Assembly (NCBI GenBank): GCA_003598015.1
Contig: QZKE01000079.1
Location: 9,468 to 73,467, forward strand
Direction of reading: 5' to 3'
Origin: Actinomycetota bacterium
Lineage (GTDB): Bacteria; Actinomycetota; Geothermincolia; Geothermincolales; RBG-13-55-18
DNA: 64,000 nucleotides
Shown: positions 21,804 to 29,135 of the stretch, one piece after another
Position numbering within the stretch: the first letter of the stretch is position 1
How the letters are laid out: every line of letters starts with the position of its first letter
Position numbers and translations under genes: made by a program
Notes under the pieces: generated by a model
Told to the model about the DNA's origin: nothing
The model's database searches: none
Seen by the model: only the letters and a program-made list of their open reading frames with translations

Positions 21804-22100
21804 TCAGATATAAACGACCTCGGAGAGAATGCGCTCACCGATCCTCGGTTTCAAAGCCTTTTTCATTACCAGATCCACGTCCACATCGAGTAGTTCGCTC
21901 AGCCTGCGCTTCAGATTTACAAACCGCATCAGGCTTATCGGCTGTGAGAACTCCACCAGTATGTCCAGGTCGCTTCCCGCCGCCTGGTCTTCGCGCACGT
22001 AGGAACCGAACAAGCCGATATTGCTCACGGAGTACTCCTCCTCGAGTTCCCCTCTGTGCTCGTTCAGCTTCTTCTTGAATCTTTCCAGATCAGTCATCAC
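21804..22100 (-). CDS. mntA: MNT-type nucleotidyltransferase antitoxin
   Basis: 98 aa. The GSYVRED...GSDLDILV minimal nucleotidyltransferase motif is present. It overlaps the HEPN gene by 11 nt. Confidence 0.85.
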   Translation of the reverse strand: MMTDLERFKKKLNEHRGELEEEYSVSNIGLFGSYVREDQAAGSDLDILVEFSQPISLMRFVNLKRRLSELLDVDVDLVMKKALKPRIGERILSEVVYI

Positions 22101-22449
22101 TCAGCTCCTCGATGGTCCGCTTAATCTCCTCTTCGGCTTCCGGTAGATCGTCCTTGACGGTCAACCATACCGCCTCCAGATCCACCTCGATGTAGTCGTG
22201 GATCAACACATTCCTCATCCCGATCATGTCGCTCCAGGGTATCTTGGGATACCTCTTAACAATTTCTTCTGGTATATGGCGCGCCGCCTCCCCGGCCACC
22301 TCGAGAGCCCGGATAACCGCATAGGATGTACGTTCGTCCTGCTCGAACTCCCGCCTATCCATATTGCCCAGGAAGGCCCGAGCCTTTGCCATGGCATCCA
22401 GGATATCCTGCAGATAATCGAGTATCAGTCGTTCTTCAGCCATCTCCAC
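22090..22449 (-). CDS. hepT: HEPN (DUF86) toxin
   Basis: 119 aa. The Rx4H motif is in MRNVLIHDY, within a typical DUF86 helical pattern. Confidence 0.85.
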   Translation of the reverse strand: MEMAEERLILDYLQDILDAMAKARAFLGNMDRREFEQDERTSYAVIRALEVAGEAARHIPEEIVKRYPKIPWSDMIGMRNVLIHDYIEVDLEAVWLTVKDDLPEAEEEIKRTIEELSDD

Positions 22450-22721: not shown

Positions 22722-23945
22722 TCAGTTGAACAATTCGCCCAGTTCCACCAGCACCCAGTCCTGGTAGTTGCAGGCTTTCACCCATAACTGAAGCTCGGCG
22801 GGGACTGCGACGAACTGGTACATCGTCGTAGGCCTGGTGGGTCCCCCTTCGCTTATCGGGACGTCAAGTATCTGCATCATGACCGCGGCGTCGATCTTCC
22901 CCCTGTATTGCTCCCCCAGGGATAAAAGGCCGTTATACCTCATGATGGAATCCTGAACGTCCGCGCTTTCATGCGTGCTTACGCCCTCCGGGGTCTTCAG
23001 GTCCCAGGTGGGCTCGATGAAATGGTTGGTGGCAACCAGGAGACCGTCTTCCTGGCCTCCCCTCTCCTTGCACGCGCAGGTCGTCTTCTCGAACGTATGG
23101 GCAGCCTGGGGATCAGCCACGTTGGCGATCACGGCTATCCTGGGGAGCGTGCTCAGCATGTAGGCCCTGGCCATTTCGATATCTGATGAATCAAGGAAAA
23201 TCGAGACATTGCCGATCATGGTGGGAACCGCTCCAGTCAGCTCCACCTGACCCCCGGATGGGGTCCCGTCATGCACTCCCATGGCAAGGTTGGCGTCATT
23301 GAACACGCTCATGGCCCCTATCTGCCCCGCATTGACGATGGTCGCCACCGACCGGCTTCCGTCATCGGGATTGAGTACTACCACAGTCAGGGTGTCGTTA
23401 TATTCCTTGAACTCAGGATAGTAGTCGAAGCTCCTCGCGCAAACGAGGGGGCCACCGCCTGTATAATCGCCCCAGGCGGCGGCGAAAGAGCACATGCCGG
23501 ACATGGAGACCAGCAGGGGCAGGTAAACGGCGTTGTCAACCATTATCAACTGCTGCAGGCTCATTCCGCTTGTCTCCTCCATGCCCTCGAGCATCTGCTG
23601 GAAGCGCGCTGGATAGATGCTGTAACTCTTAGTGAATTCCTCTTCTATCGTTGCGCGGGGAAGGGAGCCGTTCCTGGCGAAATAACCGTCAACTGCCTCT
23701 GCGTAGAAGTGCCTTATCTGGGATTCCATGAGCCCCCCGTACTGGCGGCCCATCTCCCTGTAGTTCCCGTTGAGCTGGGCTACATATATCTTGCCCGCTC
23801 GGTAAAGGCGGCCTCCCTCAAACTCCGAGACCTTTTCGAGGTTTTCGGAGGTCACCTCCCCGGAACCTCCCTTTCCACAACCGGCCGTGAACAGAGACGT
23901 GATTACCAGTAGAAGGCCGATTAGTACCGCCAGTCTTTTCCTCAA
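22722..23945 (-). CDS. C45-family (acyl-CoA:6-APA acyltransferase-like, Ntn) lipoprotein
   Basis: MRKRLAVLIGLLLVITSLFTAGCGKGG gives a signal peptide plus lipobox. The candidate Ntn nucleophile is in SGMCSFAAWGD, followed by LVCARSFDY. Confidence 0.55.
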   Translation of the reverse strand: MRKRLAVLIGLLLVITSLFTAGCGKGGSGEVTSENLEKVSEFEGGRLYRAGKIYVAQLNGNYREMGRQYGGLMESQIRHFYAEAVDGYFARNGSLPRATIEEEFTKSYSIYPARFQQMLEGMEETSGMSLQQLIMVDNAVYLPLLVSMSGMCSFAAAWGDYTGGGPLVCARSFDYYPEFKEYNDTLTVVVLNPDDGSRSVATIVNAGQIGAMSVFNDANLAMGVHDGTPSGGQVELTGAVPTMIGNVSIFLDSSDIEMARAYMLSTLPRIAVIANVADPQAAHTFEKTTCACKERGGQEDGLLVATNHFIEPTWDLKTPEGVSTHESADVQDSIMRYNGLLSLGEQYRGKIDAAVMMQILDVPISEGGPTRPTTMYQFVAVPAELQLWVKACNYQDWVLVELGELFN

Positions 23946-24420: not shown

Positions 24421-24705
24421 TCATTTCAAGCTGCTTCTCCTCAATATTTCGTAGATCTCCTCTCGCGGTCCGGTGAGTACCACGTAGACGACCTTATCCT
24501 CCGGCTTGAGTTGATAGATGATGCGGTGCTCTCCTCCTGGGGTCGTGACGGGCAGGCTGTATAGGCCTTCGTATCCTTTGAGGGGCTTTCCCGCACGAGG
24601 ACGATCCGCGAGCTTCGCAAAGGCCTTGTCGTAACAGTCCGCCAGTTCGCGGCCGTATCGCGCCAATGATTTAGCTACGCGCTGCGAGCCGTGCACCTCC
24701 CACAT
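24421..24705 (-). CDS. RelE/ParE-family toxin
   Basis: 94 aa. ...GEHRIIYQLKPEDKVVYVVLTGPREEIY is the typical RelE/ParE C-terminal pattern. It starts 4 nt after the antitoxin stop. Confidence 0.8.
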   Translation of the reverse strand: MWEVHGSQRVAKSLARYGRELADCYDKAFAKLADRPRAGKPLKGYEGLYSLPVTTPGGEHRIIYQLKPEDKVVYVVLTGPREEIYEILRRSSLK

Positions 24706-24708
24706 TGT

Positions 24709-24948
24709 CTATTTCCCGGAGCTTTTAGGGTAAAGGCGAACGGACTTCTTGCTGCGCCAATCCTCCTCCGCCTCACGCACGATATCCTCTAGGGACAGCT
24801 TGCGCAGGACGATTTCCCCTTCCCTCGCCTCTACCGTCATGCGGTCTCCTTCCTCGAACCCCAGCTGGGCCCGAATCCTCTTGGGTATTACCACCTGCCC
24901 CTTGCTGGACATCCTGGTGAGCTCTATCTGGCGGGCCATCTTTATCAC
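24709..24948 (-). CDS. AbrB/MazE/SpoVT-family antitoxin
   Basis: 79 aa. The SKGQVVIPKRIRAQLGFEEGDRMTVEAREGEIVLRK swapped-hairpin motif is present. Confidence 0.85.
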   Translation of the reverse strand: MIKMARQIELTRMSSKGQVVIPKRIRAQLGFEEGDRMTVEAREGEIVLRKLSLEDIVREAEEDWRSKKSVRLYPKSSGK

Positions 24949-25090
24949 CTCCTCTATGTAAGAATATAAGAATATCTTACCATGATTGCAAGTCCACGAC
25001 CTACGGGAGGGATAAGCCGCTATGAGGGCGACCCAGGAGGCACGAAGTGTTTTTAAGTCGTCTACATCATTATGGTATTTACTGGTATGT

Positions 25091-25120
25091 ACATATGCCT
25101 CGAAATGCGTTGCCCTTTCC
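25091..25120. repeat. island repeat, short core copy
   Basis: ACATATGCCTCGAAATGCGTTGCCCTTTCC. Confidence 0.45.
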
Positions 25121-25538
25121 TGCGAGCCCCGCTGTTCTACCTCTTCCCTGCCCCTCTAGTTTGTACCTTGAACTGGTCATAAATACAAACGCAGGGAATG
25201 ATCGCTTTACGAAACATGGCCTCGTCTACACTGGCTGGAATGAAGTTGAACTCGGGATGACTATCCCCAGATGTGTTCAAATGATCCCCTTAGCCCATGA
25301 CTGCCTAAGCCTATTGTCGACGCTGGTGCCCAGAAGAATACTACTCTCATATTCCAAATCCCCCAATAGCTCAATCACTCTTTAATTCTCGCGCAGCATA
25401 TGGGCTTGATGGGTTTTCACCGTTAGAAGGGTGATGGGTTGAGTTCATCGTATATCCGATTCCTGGAGTTGTTTCGTAGTACCCATCACGGGGAAGAATA
25501 AATCCAAAGTTAGAAACAGAAAGAGGAGGTGGATTCTT

Positions 25539-25760
25539 TTGGCAAAAGTCGACGATACCCAGGAAAACCTGGAGATCTGCGTGAAGTTCTGCGGGCCTTG
25601 CCCCTCTAAGCCGCAGGTTTTCGGGGAAGCGCTCTTCTGCGCGAGGGGTAAGAGCAGTAAAGAGGTGGAGGAAAAGGGCTGCAACTGCCCCGGCTGCGAC
25701 GTATTCGCGAAGTACGGCCTGGCTGATGGCTATTTCTGCAAGAACGGAGCCGCCGAGTAA
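25539..25760 (+). CDS. DUF2769-like Cys-rich small protein (copy 1, divergent)
   Basis: 73 aa: MAKVDDTQENLEICVKFCGPCPSKP...LFCARGKSS...KGCNCPGCDVFAKYGLADGYFCKNGAAE. It has the same architecture as the two modules downstream. Confidence 0.7.
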   Translation: MAKVDDTQENLEICVKFCGPCPSKPQVFGEALFCARGKSSKEVEEKGCNCPGCDVFAKYGLADGYFCKNGAAE

Positions 25761-25879
25761 GAAGTGTTAACACTAGCCATTAGGGTGCGCGCTTCCATCA
25801 AATACTATCAGTTCTGGGTGCGCCTTTAATGCTGCCATAAAACAGACGCTGTCTATGACGGGGAAGGGGGGAATCCACG

Positions 25880-27199
25880 ATGGAAGATCTCGGGCGAGAG
25901 AGAAACTGGTTACTGTTCCCGGGCTTCGAGATAGAGGTTGTGGCCACGGGCTTCAGCCTTCCCGTGAACATAGCCTTCGTCCCCGATGCGGGAAGCGACC
26001 CCGGAGCGCCCCTCTTCTATGTAACGGAGCTCTACGGCCAGGTCAAGGTTGTCCTGAACAATGGTGAAGTTGGTACCTATGCCACCGGCCTCCTCAACTT
26101 CGAGCCGGACTATAAATTCCCCGGCACTGGGGAATCGGGACTCACGGGGTTGTGCGTGGAGCCGGAGACCGGCGACCTCTTCCTCGCCATGCTCTATGAG
26201 GAAAACGGCCAGCCCAAGTCCAGGGTAGTGCGGACGAAAAGCGACTCGGGGCTGGAGATGACCTTGCAGGAGACCGTCCTGGACGGCGTGCCCTCCATCA
26301 GGGCCGCGCACCAGATACAGGCGGTGAGTATCGGCTATGACGGCAAGCTCTACGTGAACTTTGGGGACGGCATGGTCGATCCCAATGTAGCGCAGGATGA
26401 CAATGACCTGCGCGGCAAGATCCTGCGCCTGAACCCAGACGGCTCCGTTCCCTCCGACAACCCGAACCCGCCCAGCCCCATCTTTGCCAAGGGATTGAGA
26501 AACCCTTTCGGCGCGACCTGGAGAAAGAGCAACCACTCCCTGTACATCTCGGACAACGGACCCGCCTACGATGACAGGATCGCGAGGATAGACGCCGGGA
26601 AGAACTACGGTTGGCCCATGTCCATGCGCACCAACTCCATCTTCTGGTGGGAGTTCACCCAGGCGCCTACCGCCCTGGCCTTCATGCAGGACGGTCAGTT
26701 CCCCCATACCTATCACGACGAGCTCTTCGTCGCCCTTTTCGGCGCGGCCAATGCCAAGGGCAGGTCCCCAAAAGGAAAAAAGATCGTGAAGCTCCACCTC
26801 GGCGAGGACGACAAGGGCGTGAGCTCCGAGGACAGCTTCGTGGTGTACGTGGGAGAGGGGCCGGCAAGCCCTTGCGGACTTGCCTTCGGCCCTGGCGGCC
26901 TTTACTTCACCGACCTCTTTGGCGAGTTGGACGACCCTGCCAGGGCGCCGGTGGGCAGTGTTTACCGGGTGAGGGCGCGGGGCCGTGTCCCCGACACGCC
27001 GGAGAACTTCGCCCAATGCATCTGCAGGAACTGCCCCACCCATGACGAGTGCATGAAGGAAAGGATGCAGGGCCTGTTCTGCGCCCGTGGCAAGTCGGAC
27101 TGCGATTTCGAGCGCAAGGGTTGCATATGCGGCGAGTGCCCGCTGGCGACAAACTACCGCCTGGTGGACTACTACTACTGCGATACCGGGGAAGCTTGA
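25880..27199 (+). CDS. PQQ-dependent sugar (glucose/sorbosone) dehydrogenase-like beta-propeller fused to a C-terminal DUF2769-like module
   Basis: 439 aa with no signal peptide. Propeller motifs include GKILRLNPDGSVPSDNP, KGLRNPFG and NGPAYDDRI. The C-terminal 70 aa (26987-27196) read VPDTPENFAQCICRNCPTHDECMKERMQGLFCARGKSDCDFERKGCICGECPLATNYRLVDYYYCDTGEA. Confidence 0.7.
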   Translation: MEDLGRERNWLLFPGFEIEVVATGFSLPVNIAFVPDAGSDPGAPLFYVTELYGQVKVVLNNGEVGTYATGLLNFEPDYKFPGTGESGLTGLCVEPETGDLFLAMLYEENGQPKSRVVRTKSDSGLEMTLQETVLDGVPSIRAAHQIQAVSIGYDGKLYVNFGDGMVDPNVAQDDNDLRGKILRLNPDGSVPSDNPNPPSPIFAKGLRNPFGATWRKSNHSLYISDNGPAYDDRIARIDAGKNYGWPMSMRTNSIFWWEFTQAPTALAFMQDGQFPHTYHDELFVALFGAANAKGRSPKGKKIVKLHLGEDDKGVSSEDSFVVYVGEGPASPCGLAFGPGGLYFTDLFGELDDPARAPVGSVYRVRARGRVPDTPENFAQCICRNCPTHDECMKERMQGLFCARGKSDCDFERKGCICGECPLATNYRLVDYYYCDTGEA

Positions 27200-27256
27200 C
27201 AGTCCTCGTTTGCGGAGAATCCTTTAGCCAGACAATAAGAGGACAGGGAGGAGAGC

Positions 27257-27478
27257 ATGAGAGTTCCGGACACGAAGGAGAACCTGGATAGATGCCTCTG
27301 CAGGGAGTGCCCGTCCTACAACGCATGTATGAAAGAAGGGATGCAGGGTTTGTTCTGCGCGCGGGGCAAGACCAACTGCGACTTCGAACGGCAGGGGTGC
27401 TTCTGCGGCAGGTGCCCGGTCTCGACCGAGTACGCTCTCAACAACTTCTACTTCTGCAATACGGGCGCAGCGGAATAG
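27257..27478 (+). CDS. DUF2769-like Cys-rich small protein (copy 3)
   Basis: 73 aa: MRVPDTKENLDRCLCRECPSYNACMKEGMQGLFCARGKTNCDFERQGCFCGRCPVSTEYALNNFYFCNTGAAE. An RBS (GGAGGAGAG) is present. Confidence 0.75.
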   Translation: MRVPDTKENLDRCLCRECPSYNACMKEGMQGLFCARGKTNCDFERQGCFCGRCPVSTEYALNNFYFCNTGAAE

Positions 27479-27522
27479 ACCGGACCTCAAATCGCACCTT
27501 TCCGGGATAACGGCAGGAGAAG

Positions 27523-27669
27523 ATGGCCAGATACCGCTGCACCGTATGCAACTGGGTTTACGACGAGGAACAGGAGGGGATCCCCTTCAACTCACTTCCC
27601 GACTCGTATACATTAAAGAAAACCCATTACCAGAAGCTCGCATGCCCTCGAAAGGCGCTGTTCTTTTGA
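27523..27669 (+). pseudogene. decayed rubredoxin (second Cys knuckle lost)
   Basis: This 48-codon ORF is below the track cut-off. MARYRCTVCNWVYDEEQEGIPFNSLPDSY matches rubredoxin up to the LPDDW position. The sequence then switches to TLKKTHYQKLACPRKALFF, whose DNA is a copy of the island repeat core. A GGAGAAG RBS precedes the ATG. Confidence 0.5.
27640..27668. repeat. island repeat, short core copy (3' of the hydrolase gene, inside the rubredoxin remnant)
   Basis: GCATGCCCTCGAAAGGCGCTGTTCTTTTG. Confidence 0.45.
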
Positions 27670-27722
27670 CAGGCTTCGCTCACTGGATTCGATTCTCAAC
27701 CTGTCCGCATCTTGAGCGGGGG

Positions 27723-29135
27723 TTATTTCTTCGCTAGGTTGCCCAGGATGAAGGCGGCGATGTCGTCCACGACCTCCTCCGGGACGTGGCCCGGCAGCTC
27801 GTATTCCGCGGGGGTGCTCTTGCCCGTCCCCGGGACGAAGAGGTGGTTGAGGTCGGGGTAGGTCTCGAAGGTCACGTTGGGCATGCCGGACAGCGCGTCC
27901 AGCCAGCGCTGGAGGTCGGCCATGGTCACCTGGTAATCACGTTCCCCCTGCAGCACCAGGACGGGACGGTCGATGCTCTTGGCCGACTCCGCCGGGTCGT
28001 AGTCCCGCAGGTCCAGCCAGTAGCGCCCGGTGACGCCGAAGGGCAGCTCCGCCGCCGGAGTGGTCGGCGCCAGGCCGGTATCCTTCACCTTGGCTACCAC
28101 GGTCCGCAATTGGTCCAGCATGACCTGTTCCTCCAGGGTTATCACGCCGTCCAGGGAGGCGATGTAGGTGGACTGCTCGAGCACCAGGTCCTCCAGCGGT
28201 CGCGCCGCGCCCGCCAGGATGACGAAGCCCCGGGCCTGCGGCGAGGCGGCGGCGATGCGCGGGATGAGCATGCCGCCCAGGCTGTGGCCGAGTACGAAGA
28301 CATTACGAGGATCGATGCCCTCTGTCTGTAGCAGGAGTTCCACGGCGGCCACGGCGTCGTCCACCGTCTCCTCCCACACCGTGATGTCGCCGCCGAGCGC
28401 CGCTATCTGATCCTGATAGACCAGGGTTCGCTTATCGTAGCGGAGGACGGCTATGCCCCACGAGCCCAGTCCCCAGGCCAGGTCCTTGAAGGGCGCGATG
28501 GGACCGAGGGACTCGTCCCGGTTGTTGGGGCCGGACCCGTGCACCAGCACAAGGGCGGGGAAGGGGCCCTCTCCCCTGGGTACGGTAAGGGTCCCGGGAA
28601 GGGCCCACTCCTCATCTCCCACCGTCACCTCCTGTTCGGTGAAGCTGTCAAGGTCGACATAGGAGGGGGGCTCGTATTCGGAGGCGCCCTGGGTGGGAGC
28701 GAAAGAAAGGCCGGTGACCTTGCCGCCCCCGTCGAAGACGATCTTCACATCCGTAGACGACTGCTCGAAGCGGCAGGTGACGAAGACCACCCTCGTGCCG
28801 CCGGTGGAGGTGGAGGCGCGGGTTGCGGTGATCTCCTGGAAGGGGCCCGCATTCTCCACCAGGGAATCCCAGGCCTGTGCGAGCTGGTCGGGAGGCAGGG
28901 CCTGCCGCAAGGTGTCGTCGAATTCCTCCACCGCTGCAGCGTAGTCGCCCGCGGCGATGGATTCCACGATCTCTTGCGCCCTGGCCTCCGTATCGCTGAC
29001 GCCGGGTCCCCGCGCTTCGCCGCATCCCGCGATGAGGCTCAGCGCCAGGAAGGCGGTGAGGCACAGAGTGAACAGAGGCAGCAGGCTACGCATCACGTCA
29101 CATCCCGGTCTTACCATAACTGCTTTGCCGGCCAT
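27723..29135 (-). CDS. alpha/beta-hydrolase lipoprotein
   Basis: 470 aa. The signal peptide ends in the lipobox LIAGCGE. The nucleophile elbow is VLGHSLGG, and the N-terminal roughly 130 aa form an extra domain. AAGGGAG lies 6 nt before the listed ATG. Confidence 0.75.
   Translation of the reverse strand: MAGKAVMVRPGCDVMRSLLPLFTLCLTAFLALSLIAGCGEARGPGVSDTEARAQEIVESIAAGDYAAAVEEFDDTLRQALPPDQLAQAWDSLVENAGPFQEITATRASTSTGGTRVVFVTCRFEQSSTDVKIVFDGGGKVTGLSFAPTQGASEYEPPSYVDLDSFTEQEVTVGDEEWALPGTLTVPRGEGPFPALVLVHGSGPNNRDESLGPIAPFKDLAWGLGSWGIAVLRYDKRTLVYQDQIAALGGDITVWEETVDDAVAAVELLLQTEGIDPRNVFVLGHSLGGMLIPRIAAASPQARGFVILAGAARPLEDLVLEQSTYIASLDGVITLEEQVMLDQLRTVVAKVKDTGLAPTTPAAELPFGVTGRYWLDLRDYDPAESAKSIDRPVLVLQGERDYQVTMADLQRWLDALSGMPNVTFETYPDLNHLFVPGTGKSTPAEYELPGHVPEEVVDDIAAFILGNLAKK

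Follow-up and report, generated by a model that had tools for sequence, protein, structure and literature searches.

We examined a 64,000-nucleotide stretch of contig QZKE01000079.1 from the Actinomycetota assembly GCA_003598015.1 (the window), and in particular a gene cluster in which small cysteine-rich proteins of the DUF2769 family (PF10967) accompany, and are fused to, a beta-propeller of the glucose/sorbosone dehydrogenase (GSDH) type. Four same-strand open reading frames (ORFs) lie within 2.1 kb, and three DUF2769 modules occupy 25539-27478 (Table 1); the original prediction, made from the DNA letters, had placed three DUF2769-like modules in 2 kb, and all four ORFs are found where it put them. 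The fusion gene and the free DUF2769 gene downstream of it (27257-27478) are 57 bp apart. Read from its sequence, the locus is a composite of a propeller-DUF2769 gene, with a free DUF2769 gene on either side, and the eroded margin of a second redox cluster that is associated with DUF2769.

Table 1. Features of the propeller-DUF2769 locus in window coordinates (aa, amino acids; RBS, ribosome-binding site; Rd, rubredoxin; TPP, thiamine pyrophosphate; AF2, AlphaFold2).
Feature	Position	Strand	Basis
Free DUF2769 protein, type B, 73 aa, 8 Cys	25539..25760	+	ORF, TTG start after GAGGAGG; PF10967 4.2e-14
Propeller part (aa 1-372) of the 439-aa fusion protein	25880..26995	+	Pfam GSDH 5.5e-34; AF2; Foldseek
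Type-A DUF2769 domain at the fusion C-terminus (aa 373-439, 10 Cys) and stop codon	26996..27199	+	PF10967 3.6e-15, aa 380-434
Complete fusion ORF, 439 aa	25880-27199	+	
Free DUF2769 protein, type A, 73 aa, 10 Cys, RBS GGAGG	27257..27478	+	ORF; Pfam 5.7e-16
Stump of an Rd-TPP enzyme gene, 48-codon ORF	27523..27669	+	Translation; 27/30 identity to the Rd-TPP N-terminus of contig L223
Terminator-like hairpin and T-tract 3' of the stump, possible operon end, weak consensus match	27704..27730	+	Terminator scan

All three modules scored far above the DUF2769 gathering cut-off of 22.8 bits in Pfam (53.3 bits for 25539-25760, 56.7 for residues 380-434 of the fusion protein and 59.3 for 27257-27478), which bears out the proposed family assignment. 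They share V-D-T-EN, LFCARGK, GCxCxxC and a final aromatic-Cys pair, at pairwise identities of 44-63%. The single pattern that had been drawn for them, with 9-10 Cys each, holds in part: every module has LFCARGK and the terminal aromatic-Cys, but the first reads CxxxCxxCP and lacks the second 'CP', and the actual Cys counts are 8, 10 and 10. Alignment of diverse family members separates a type A with 10 Cys, CxCxxCP...C...LFCARGK..C..GCxCxxCP...YYC, to which the fused domain and the downstream free gene belong, from a type B with 8 Cys, CxxxCxxCP...LFCARGK...GCNCxxC...YFC, to which the upstream free gene belongs. Among 52 diverse members, eight Cys positions show little or no variation, and all eight of these (C13/14, C15/18, C18/21, C34, C48, C50, C53 and C67) are kept in each window module. 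They are arranged as a pseudo-twofold repeat, [C-x(1,3)-C-x2-C-P ... aromatic-C] x2, with the aromatic-Cys pair 13-15 residues after the Cys-Pro. Eight invariant Cys are enough for two Cys4 sites, which could be either two clusters or two mononuclear irons.

DUF2769 is a small family, with 716 clusters at 50% identity among 1.84 billion representative sequences, so that the presence of three copies within 2 kb excludes chance. The 'local amplification' that had been suggested does not hold in the sense of a recent duplication, given the 44-63% identity, the two subtypes and the orthology of the two free genes to a pair on contig L223; the three modules are, by their sequences, divergent paralogs. 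The closest relative of the 27257-27478 module is protein P0121, at 93% identity, and the 25539-25760 module is about 90% identical to its ortholog at 1939-2160 of L223. AF2 predicts four short helices for the free module 27257-27478 in its best model (predicted local distance difference test, pLDDT, 82.9), with the other four models at 53-66. A Foldseek search of the PDB with this model gave no fold match, and a sequence search gave no PDB relative. In Pfam at E<=1 the modules matched no Fer4, rubredoxin, other Fe-S or metallothionein family, and besides DUF2769 a sub-threshold match to Albumin_I_a was all that appeared. Our literature search for DUF2769 returned two passing mentions only, and a search for PF10967 returned nothing. 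A DUF2769 small protein of M. mazei was detected under heat stress only (PMC12704099), and DUF2769 has been listed as an archaeal 'dark' structural cluster (bioRxiv 10.64898/2026.04.01.715805).

The partner to which the type-A module is fused had been assigned to the GSDH-type propellers, and Pfam agrees, with a match of 118.4 bits to GSDH (PF07995; cut-off 25 bits) on residues 28-249 of the 439, covering profile positions 4-223 of 332; the C-terminal 120 residues of the propeller lie outside this match. AF2 builds residues 10-368 as a six-bladed propeller with a pLDDT of about 90. The best Foldseek match of this predicted structure is 3A9G, the pyrroloquinoline quinone (PQQ) aldose dehydrogenase of Pyrobaculum (template modelling score 0.84, E 1.3e-26, 26% identity), followed by the enzymes of T. 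thermophilus, E. coli, S. coelicolor and A. calcoaceticus and then by HHIP. The score against TIGR03606 (NCBIfam), at 64.2 bits, is far below the cut-off of 434.55.

Much of the active site of the soluble glucose dehydrogenases (sGDH) can be traced in the window protein. The general base His144 corresponds to H144, inside an invariant AAHQIQ, and Arg228/Asn229 to R207/N208, which together with H144 are invariant in 41 homologs; the Gln246-Gly247-Pro248 loop becomes N226-G227-P228. In a global profile-profile alignment with 45 classical GSDH proteins, K298 pairs with the basic residue of the classical 'L(R/K)G', the Lys377 position. The near-invariant 'ASPCGL' of the subfamily aligns on the classical 'GRxRDV', which puts S330 and C332 at Arg406 and Arg408; the classical motif is itself variable, a strict regular expression matching only 14 of the 45 classical proteins, and we take Arg406 and Arg408 of the sGDH sequence to sit within 'GRxRDV'. 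Arg406, which is conserved, and Arg408 bind the PQQ carboxylates in sGDH (PMC6881789). Because these PQQ-clamping arginines are lost and the hosts are anaerobic, canonical PQQ binding by the propeller is doubtful. The label 'PQQ-type' that had been given to it is thus questionable, as the sGDH-type fold, the His and the Arg/Asn pair are there but Ser and Cys stand at the equivalents of Arg406 and Arg408. Such anaerobic hosts are not known to make PQQ.

Quinoproteins of the sGDH type are regarded as periplasmic or secreted PQQ enzymes of aerobes and facultative organisms. None of 41 members of the window subfamily has a hydrophobic N-terminal window, compared to 38 of the 45 classical GSDH proteins, and in all 41 the first conserved strand of the propeller begins after about 11 residues. 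The window fusion gene leaves only 7 in-frame codons between the upstream stop and its ATG, so that no signal peptide is possible. These results uphold the earlier description of the propeller as signal-less, and the protein is predicted to be cytoplasmic. A survey of bacterial six-bladed PQQ proteins (AA12/CcPDH-type) found Sec signals in all sequences (bioRxiv 10.64898/2026.07.10.737718). Compared with the PQQ aldose/glucose dehydrogenases (P. aerophilum Asd, 3A9G/3A9H; E. coli YliI, 2G8S; A. calcoaceticus sGDH, 1C9U), the window propeller has the same fold, His, Arg/Asn, (Q/N)-G-P loop and Lys377 equivalent, but it differs from them in having no signal peptide, Ser330/Cys332 for Arg406/Arg408, anaerobic hosts and a Cys-rich fusion. 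It is best described as a divergent member of the GSDH superfamily, one that falls short of TIGR03606, has lost Arg406/Arg408 and carries no export signal.

Archaeal and bacterial members of the subfamily are 55-68% identical, and this high identity points to strong constraint and horizontal spread. A sister branch, 55-62% identical, is fused to DUF427 instead and has altered active-site motifs (SINGP, NHGW, AEGG). Further away, propellers 40-47% identical to that of the window occur within proteins of 700 to more than 1300 residues in Planctomycetota, Catellatospora and others (L011-L030), and the one protein of this type that was checked, from Planctomycetota, also carries PKD domains. These form a distinct and probably secreted branch that lies between classical GSDH and the cytoplasmic subfamily. 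An outgroup with cytochrome domains, suggested by a weak NCBIfam match to PVC-type haem-binding proteins, was dropped, as the checked Planctomycetota relative has PKD domains and not a cytochrome.

The fusion itself recurs widely. A homolog search found the PF10967 and PF07995 architecture in more than 30 clusters (at the 90% identity level) that are 60-81% identical to the window protein, with Dehalococcoidia and Hermodarchaeota among the named sources; the nearest named relative comes from a Dehalococcoidia metagenome-assembled genome (MAG), at 66% identity. The propeller subfamily also occurs solo (about 365 residues) and as the DUF427 (PF04248) fusion (about 464 residues). To count these arrangements we scanned species-representative genomes with a subfamily-specific motif (AHQ[IV]Q...G.D.KLY.N) and then scanned the loci with hidden Markov models (HMMs); this replaced a generic propeller scan, which had drawn in the whole GSDH family with only 7 loci from close relatives. 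The motif matched 58 genomes, and every host belongs to an anaerobic lineage: Methanobacterium (M. oryzae DSM 11106 and two complete genomes), Methanomassiliicoccales, Archaeoglobaceae, Aminicenantes, Actinomycetota, Patescibacteria, Dehalococcoidia, Atribacterota and Eubacteriales are among them.

Downstream sequence could be assessed at 52 of the 58 loci. The propeller is fused to DUF2769 at 19 of these, is followed directly on the same strand by a free type-A DUF2769 gene at 16, with a gap of -4 to about 70 bp, and has neither at 17, of which 2 are DUF427 fusions. Fusion or translational coupling thus joins DUF2769 to the propeller at 35 of the 52 species-level loci, and the fused or adjacent module is type A throughout the census. 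Operons in which one to three additional free DUF2769 genes accompany the fusion gene are found repeatedly in Methanobacterium, including M. oryzae DSM 11106. Clustering of the neighbours around the propeller showed no other gene kept across lineages, which argues that the propeller and DUF2769 form a self-contained two-part module. Type-B loci, found in Nitrospirota, Promethearchaeota, Heimdallarchaeota and Methanomicrobiales, have no propeller within 6 kb.

The claim that the fusion is genuine is thereby borne out, as it is found in 19 species-level genomes and is not unique to this assembly. A chimeric join or frameshift artefact of the assembly, to which we give practically no credence, is refuted by the more than 30 clusters and by the 19 genomes, which include complete ones from cultured Methanobacterium. 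In a few relatives the two parts are split (P0008 and P0194, which share a contig; L184, L010 and L165). Our literature search on the propeller-DUF2769 association, which included sorbosone dehydrogenase with Methanobacterium, found nothing. Among the propeller's less regular neighbours, a CMD/AhpD-like gene (PF02627; L004:9554-9910) follows the P0024 fusion gene, and a luciferase-like oxidoreductase gene (F420-type) lies divergently before it; the luciferase-like gene is upstream in eight loci, mostly of Methanobacterium.

DUF2769 is also found on an unrelated redox enzyme. In a second, widespread architecture it stands at the N-terminus of a glutamate synthase-related protein (PF10967 with PF01645), as in 120 of the 120 top homologs, which are 60-84% identical and come from Methanosarcinales, Methanoperedens, anaerobic methanotrophic archaea of group 1 (ANME-1), Methanobacterium and Moranbacteria. 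The orthologous enzyme of Methanoculleus (L103) has an N-terminal rubredoxin (PF00301) in this place and adjoins two free DUF2769 genes. With the L103 protein as query, 577 relatives were found in species genomes and the best 77 were scored: a rubredoxin-like CxxC...CPxC N-terminus is present in 72 of these, including Clostridioides difficile, Hungatella hathewayi and Methanobrevibacter, and of the other five, one has Fer4_19 and two zf-CDGSH domains at the N-terminus and four are truncated or different. The first of these five is a flavin mononucleotide (FMN) protein from an Aminicenantes MAG (L245:2317-4236) and illustrates that the electron-entry module differs widely within this enzyme family. 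In its position, DUF2769 is therefore interchangeable with known Fe and Fe-S electron-transfer domains, as judged from domain order.

Rubredoxin-bearing enzymes also neighbour DUF2769. In Bathyarchaeota and Methanomicrobiales, fusions of one or two rubredoxins to a TPP enzyme are encoded no more than 2 kb from type-B DUF2769 genes, and the Rd-TPP and DUF2769 neighbourhood is found in both bacteria and archaea. At individual loci (L223:2635-4413, L142:7315-9249, L134, L147 and L125) the enzyme beside the DUF2769 genes is of the acetolactate-synthase/pyruvate-oxidase type, with the 1-2 rubredoxins at its N-terminus; we know of no description of such a rubredoxin-TPP architecture. The two unrelated scaffolds, the equivalence of position and the rubredoxin-fused neighbours together give the strongest available support, which is indirect, for an electron-transfer role of DUF2769.

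The 14.5-kb contig L223, which encodes P0121, explains the last gene of the window locus. On L223 the orthologs of the window's two free DUF2769 genes, one type B and one type A, are followed by a 592-residue Rd-TPP fusion and a 505-residue DUF2769-Glu_synthase (PF01645) fusion; the contig has no propeller. The window's rubredoxin ORF, at 27523-27669, agrees with the N-terminus of the L223 Rd-TPP protein at 27 of its first 30 codons, and the DNA homology breaks near 27612, ahead of the second CPxC knuckle (CPIC). As only the first of the two rubredoxin knuckles (C6, C9) is present, and the homology ends before the second, the ORF is a gene stump left by deletion or rearrangement that cannot bind iron. 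It is, from its sequence, non-functional as a rubredoxin and cannot be a working partner of the propeller. The earlier description of a rubredoxin remnant was correct as to its degraded state, and the remnant can now be named as a 30-codon stump of an Rd-TPP gene that is intact in a close relative (L223). With the stump homologous to an L223 gene and L223 lacking the propeller, the window locus would be a propeller-DUF2769 insertion plus the remnant of a second redox cluster.

Several other settings of DUF2769 were seen in the survey. In 16-19 genomes of Promethearchaeota (among L130-L163; L146:820-1212, L161:3755-4831, L138:1364-3037), about 190 bp separate a type-B gene from an ArsR-family helix-turn-helix gene (PF01022) and about 800 bp separate it from an SBF/ACR3-like permease gene (PF01758), and a methyltransferase-CdhD-like fusion is nearby. 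By analogy with ars and smt operons, this layout hints at metal or metalloid responsiveness. In Nitrospirota/Thermodesulfovibrionia (L108-L137; L137:5198-5950) a type-B gene lies about 60 bp downstream of a 6-phosphogluconolactonase gene (PF01182), with what by eye are glucose-6-phosphate dehydrogenase- and 6-phosphogluconate dehydrogenase-like proteins upstream and PhoU-like and PiT-like phosphate transporter genes downstream, a context that may be lineage synteny or may link DUF2769 to sugar-acid metabolism. In ANME-1/Methanophagales (L086, L087, L090, L092, L093, L095, L098; P0241) a type-A module carries a Lys/Glu-rich C-terminal extension of about 90 residues, probably helical and without a Pfam match, and its gene lies between Trm1-like and MptA-like genes (by eye) with no propeller nearby.

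On balance, we lean towards a cytoplasmic oxidoreductase of anaerobes that joins an sGDH-derived propeller to DUF2769 as an electron relay with Cys-ligated Fe or Fe-S centres. The catalytic part would be the six-bladed propeller, descended from the sGDH/Asd family and retaining His-assisted substrate chemistry, probably without canonical use of PQQ, as the clamp arginines are gone and a conserved Cys has been gained. DUF2769, whether fused or co-translated, would relay electrons to or from the propeller active site, and the extra free paralogs may lengthen this chain or link it to other enzymes. The idea that the Cys-rich module is an electron-transfer partner was put forward in the original prediction, and it gains comparative support from the coupling at 35 of 52 loci and from the N-terminal slot of the FMN enzyme, which DUF2769 shares with rubredoxin-like or Fer4_19/CDGSH domains; the metal binding and the direction and role of the electron transfer are inferred. 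A propeller of the sGDH type that is covalently joined to a small electron-transfer domain is found in the pyranose dehydrogenase of Coprinopsis cinerea (AA12 with a cytochrome b; PMC6881789), though that enzyme has a haem b domain, is secreted and is PQQ-dependent with all PQQ-binding residues. The rubredoxin- or Fe-S-fused FMN proteins of PF01645 (Clostridioides, Hungatella, Methanoculleus) likewise have a small Cys-rich metal domain on a redox enzyme, but there the enzyme is an FMN TIM barrel and not a propeller, and the fusion is N-terminal and not C-terminal.

Several observations weigh against this relay. The CxCxxC spacing fits no canonical Fe-S motif, and neither a Fer4 nor a rubredoxin HMM matches. 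DUF2769 resembles the bacterial ferredoxins with 2x[4Fe-4S] in being small, with eight Cys in a twofold three-Cys motif that ends in Cys-Pro and has a remote fourth Cys; the spacing, however, is CxCxxCP or CxxxCxxCP and not CxxCxxCxxxCP, and four short helices are predicted. The missing Fer4 match makes it less likely that DUF2769 is a ferredoxin, not that it works like one. Only one of the five AF2 models of the free module is confident, and in the AF2 model of the fusion protein the DUF2769 domain has a pLDDT of about 30, so that its docking on the propeller is unreadable. At 17 of the 52 loci no DUF2769 is nearby, and the sister propeller branch carries DUF427, which has a beta-tent fold (PMC4287342) and no metal site; a C-terminal add-on of this propeller need not, then, be an electron carrier.

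A C-x-C motif is a typical feature of metallothioneins, and knuckles of the rubredoxin type frequently coordinate Zn, many of those in enzymes being structural Zn sites. DUF2769 could be a thiolate domain for Zn or a soft metal, in the form of a structural finger with two Zn(Cys)4 sites or of a metallothionein-like buffer or chaperone, which stabilises, regulates or metallates its partners instead of carrying electrons. The 8-10 Cys per roughly 70 residues, with C-x-C and C-x-x-C in metallothionein style, and the lack of a match to any Fe-S HMM are consistent with such a domain. So is the position of the type-B gene between the ArsR-family regulator and the SBF/ACR3-like permease at 16-19 Promethearchaeota loci, which recalls the logic of smtB/smtA and ars operons, although this Asgard context may be mere lineage synteny. 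With SmtA/BmtA, the metallothioneins that go with SmtB, DUF2769 has in common small size, richness in Cys, C-x-C and, in Promethearchaeota, the adjoining ArsR-family gene; it differs in having no sequence or HMM similarity to them (no metallothionein family matches at E<=1 in Pfam), in being far better conserved, with aromatic and hydrophobic core residues, and in being fused to redox enzymes. The slot on the FMN enzyme otherwise also holds bona fide Fe-S types (Fer4_19, CDGSH), and the family is seen in anaerobes only. We therefore regard a Zn or soft-metal domain as rather unlikely, if the most serious of the alternatives.

A role without any redox chemistry, in which the C-terminal add-on, be it DUF2769 or DUF427, serves in substrate recognition, as a lid or in oligomerisation, would account for the fusion of the same propeller subfamily to the metal-site-free DUF427, whose beta-tent relatives bind small ligands, and for the roughly one third of loci that are partnerless. 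The altered active-site motifs of the DUF427 branch indicate, however, that it has diverged in function, and DUF2769 also exists as a free protein, with up to three extra copies per operon. It is fused to an unrelated FMN enzyme in place of rubredoxin as well, which suits a portable carrier better than a lid specific to the propeller, and we consider the recognition or lid role improbable. The presence of several small paralogous genes beside one enzyme gene could also mean that the DUF2769 proteins are substrates of the propeller, as Cys-rich peptides modified in the manner of ribosomally synthesised and post-translationally modified peptides (RiPPs). Such an arrangement is very improbable given that DUF2769 is conserved over its full length across phyla, unlike RiPP cores, is fused to the C-terminus of the propeller and to the N-terminus of another enzyme, and is interchangeable with rubredoxin.

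If the Fe or Fe-S relay is taken further, DUF2769 might be a new-fold carrier on a par with rubredoxin and ferredoxin, and the propeller a PQQ-independent cytoplasmic branch of sGDH whose redox chemistry runs via the DUF2769 centre and possibly Cys332. The two would make up a new class of anaerobic oxidoreductase, spread horizontally among methanogens, Asgard archaea, Patescibacteria, Dehalococcoidia and others. We put this wider proposal forward tentatively, as a possibility that we would not yet favour. A highly conserved cytoplasmic sGDH branch in strict anaerobes, its bacterial and archaeal members 60-70% identical, with methanogens and Patescibacteria among the hosts and the clamp arginines lost, raises the question of its cofactor and substrate, and DUF2769 is now tied to two unrelated redox scaffolds and to the slot of rubredoxin and Fe-S domains. 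The electron-carrier hypothesis is directly testable on a 73-residue protein that should be easy to express. If it is true, it would supply an annotation for hundreds of 'hypothetical' genes from methanogens, ANME, Asgard archaea and candidate phyla and add a new module to the anaerobic electron-transfer repertoire.

A terminator scan of the region gave 2 sites of the kind found at 27704..27730 against 2.5 expected, so that this hairpin is not significant alone; an Rfam scan of the window gave no match, and a promoter scan found nothing, with no sigma-70-like promoter seen in 24950-25540. That interval, about 590 bp 5' of the first DUF2769 gene, is apparently non-coding and has a G+C content of about 52%, compared to about 61% for the window. 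Public sequencing runs contained only 5-7% of the words of the locus, and no expression data could be mapped. The flanking genes are unrelated to the locus. Downstream, on the opposite strand, are an alpha/beta-hydrolase gene and pyruvate-dehydrogenase-type E1 genes. Upstream, on the minus strand, 22722-23945 encodes a 407-residue predicted lipoprotein with a signal sequence ending in LFTAGC and no Pfam match at E<=0.001, and there are two type II toxin-antitoxin pairs: an MNT nucleotidyltransferase with a HepT-like RNase at 21804-22449, and a ParE-like toxin with a MazE/AbrB-type antitoxin at 24421-24948.

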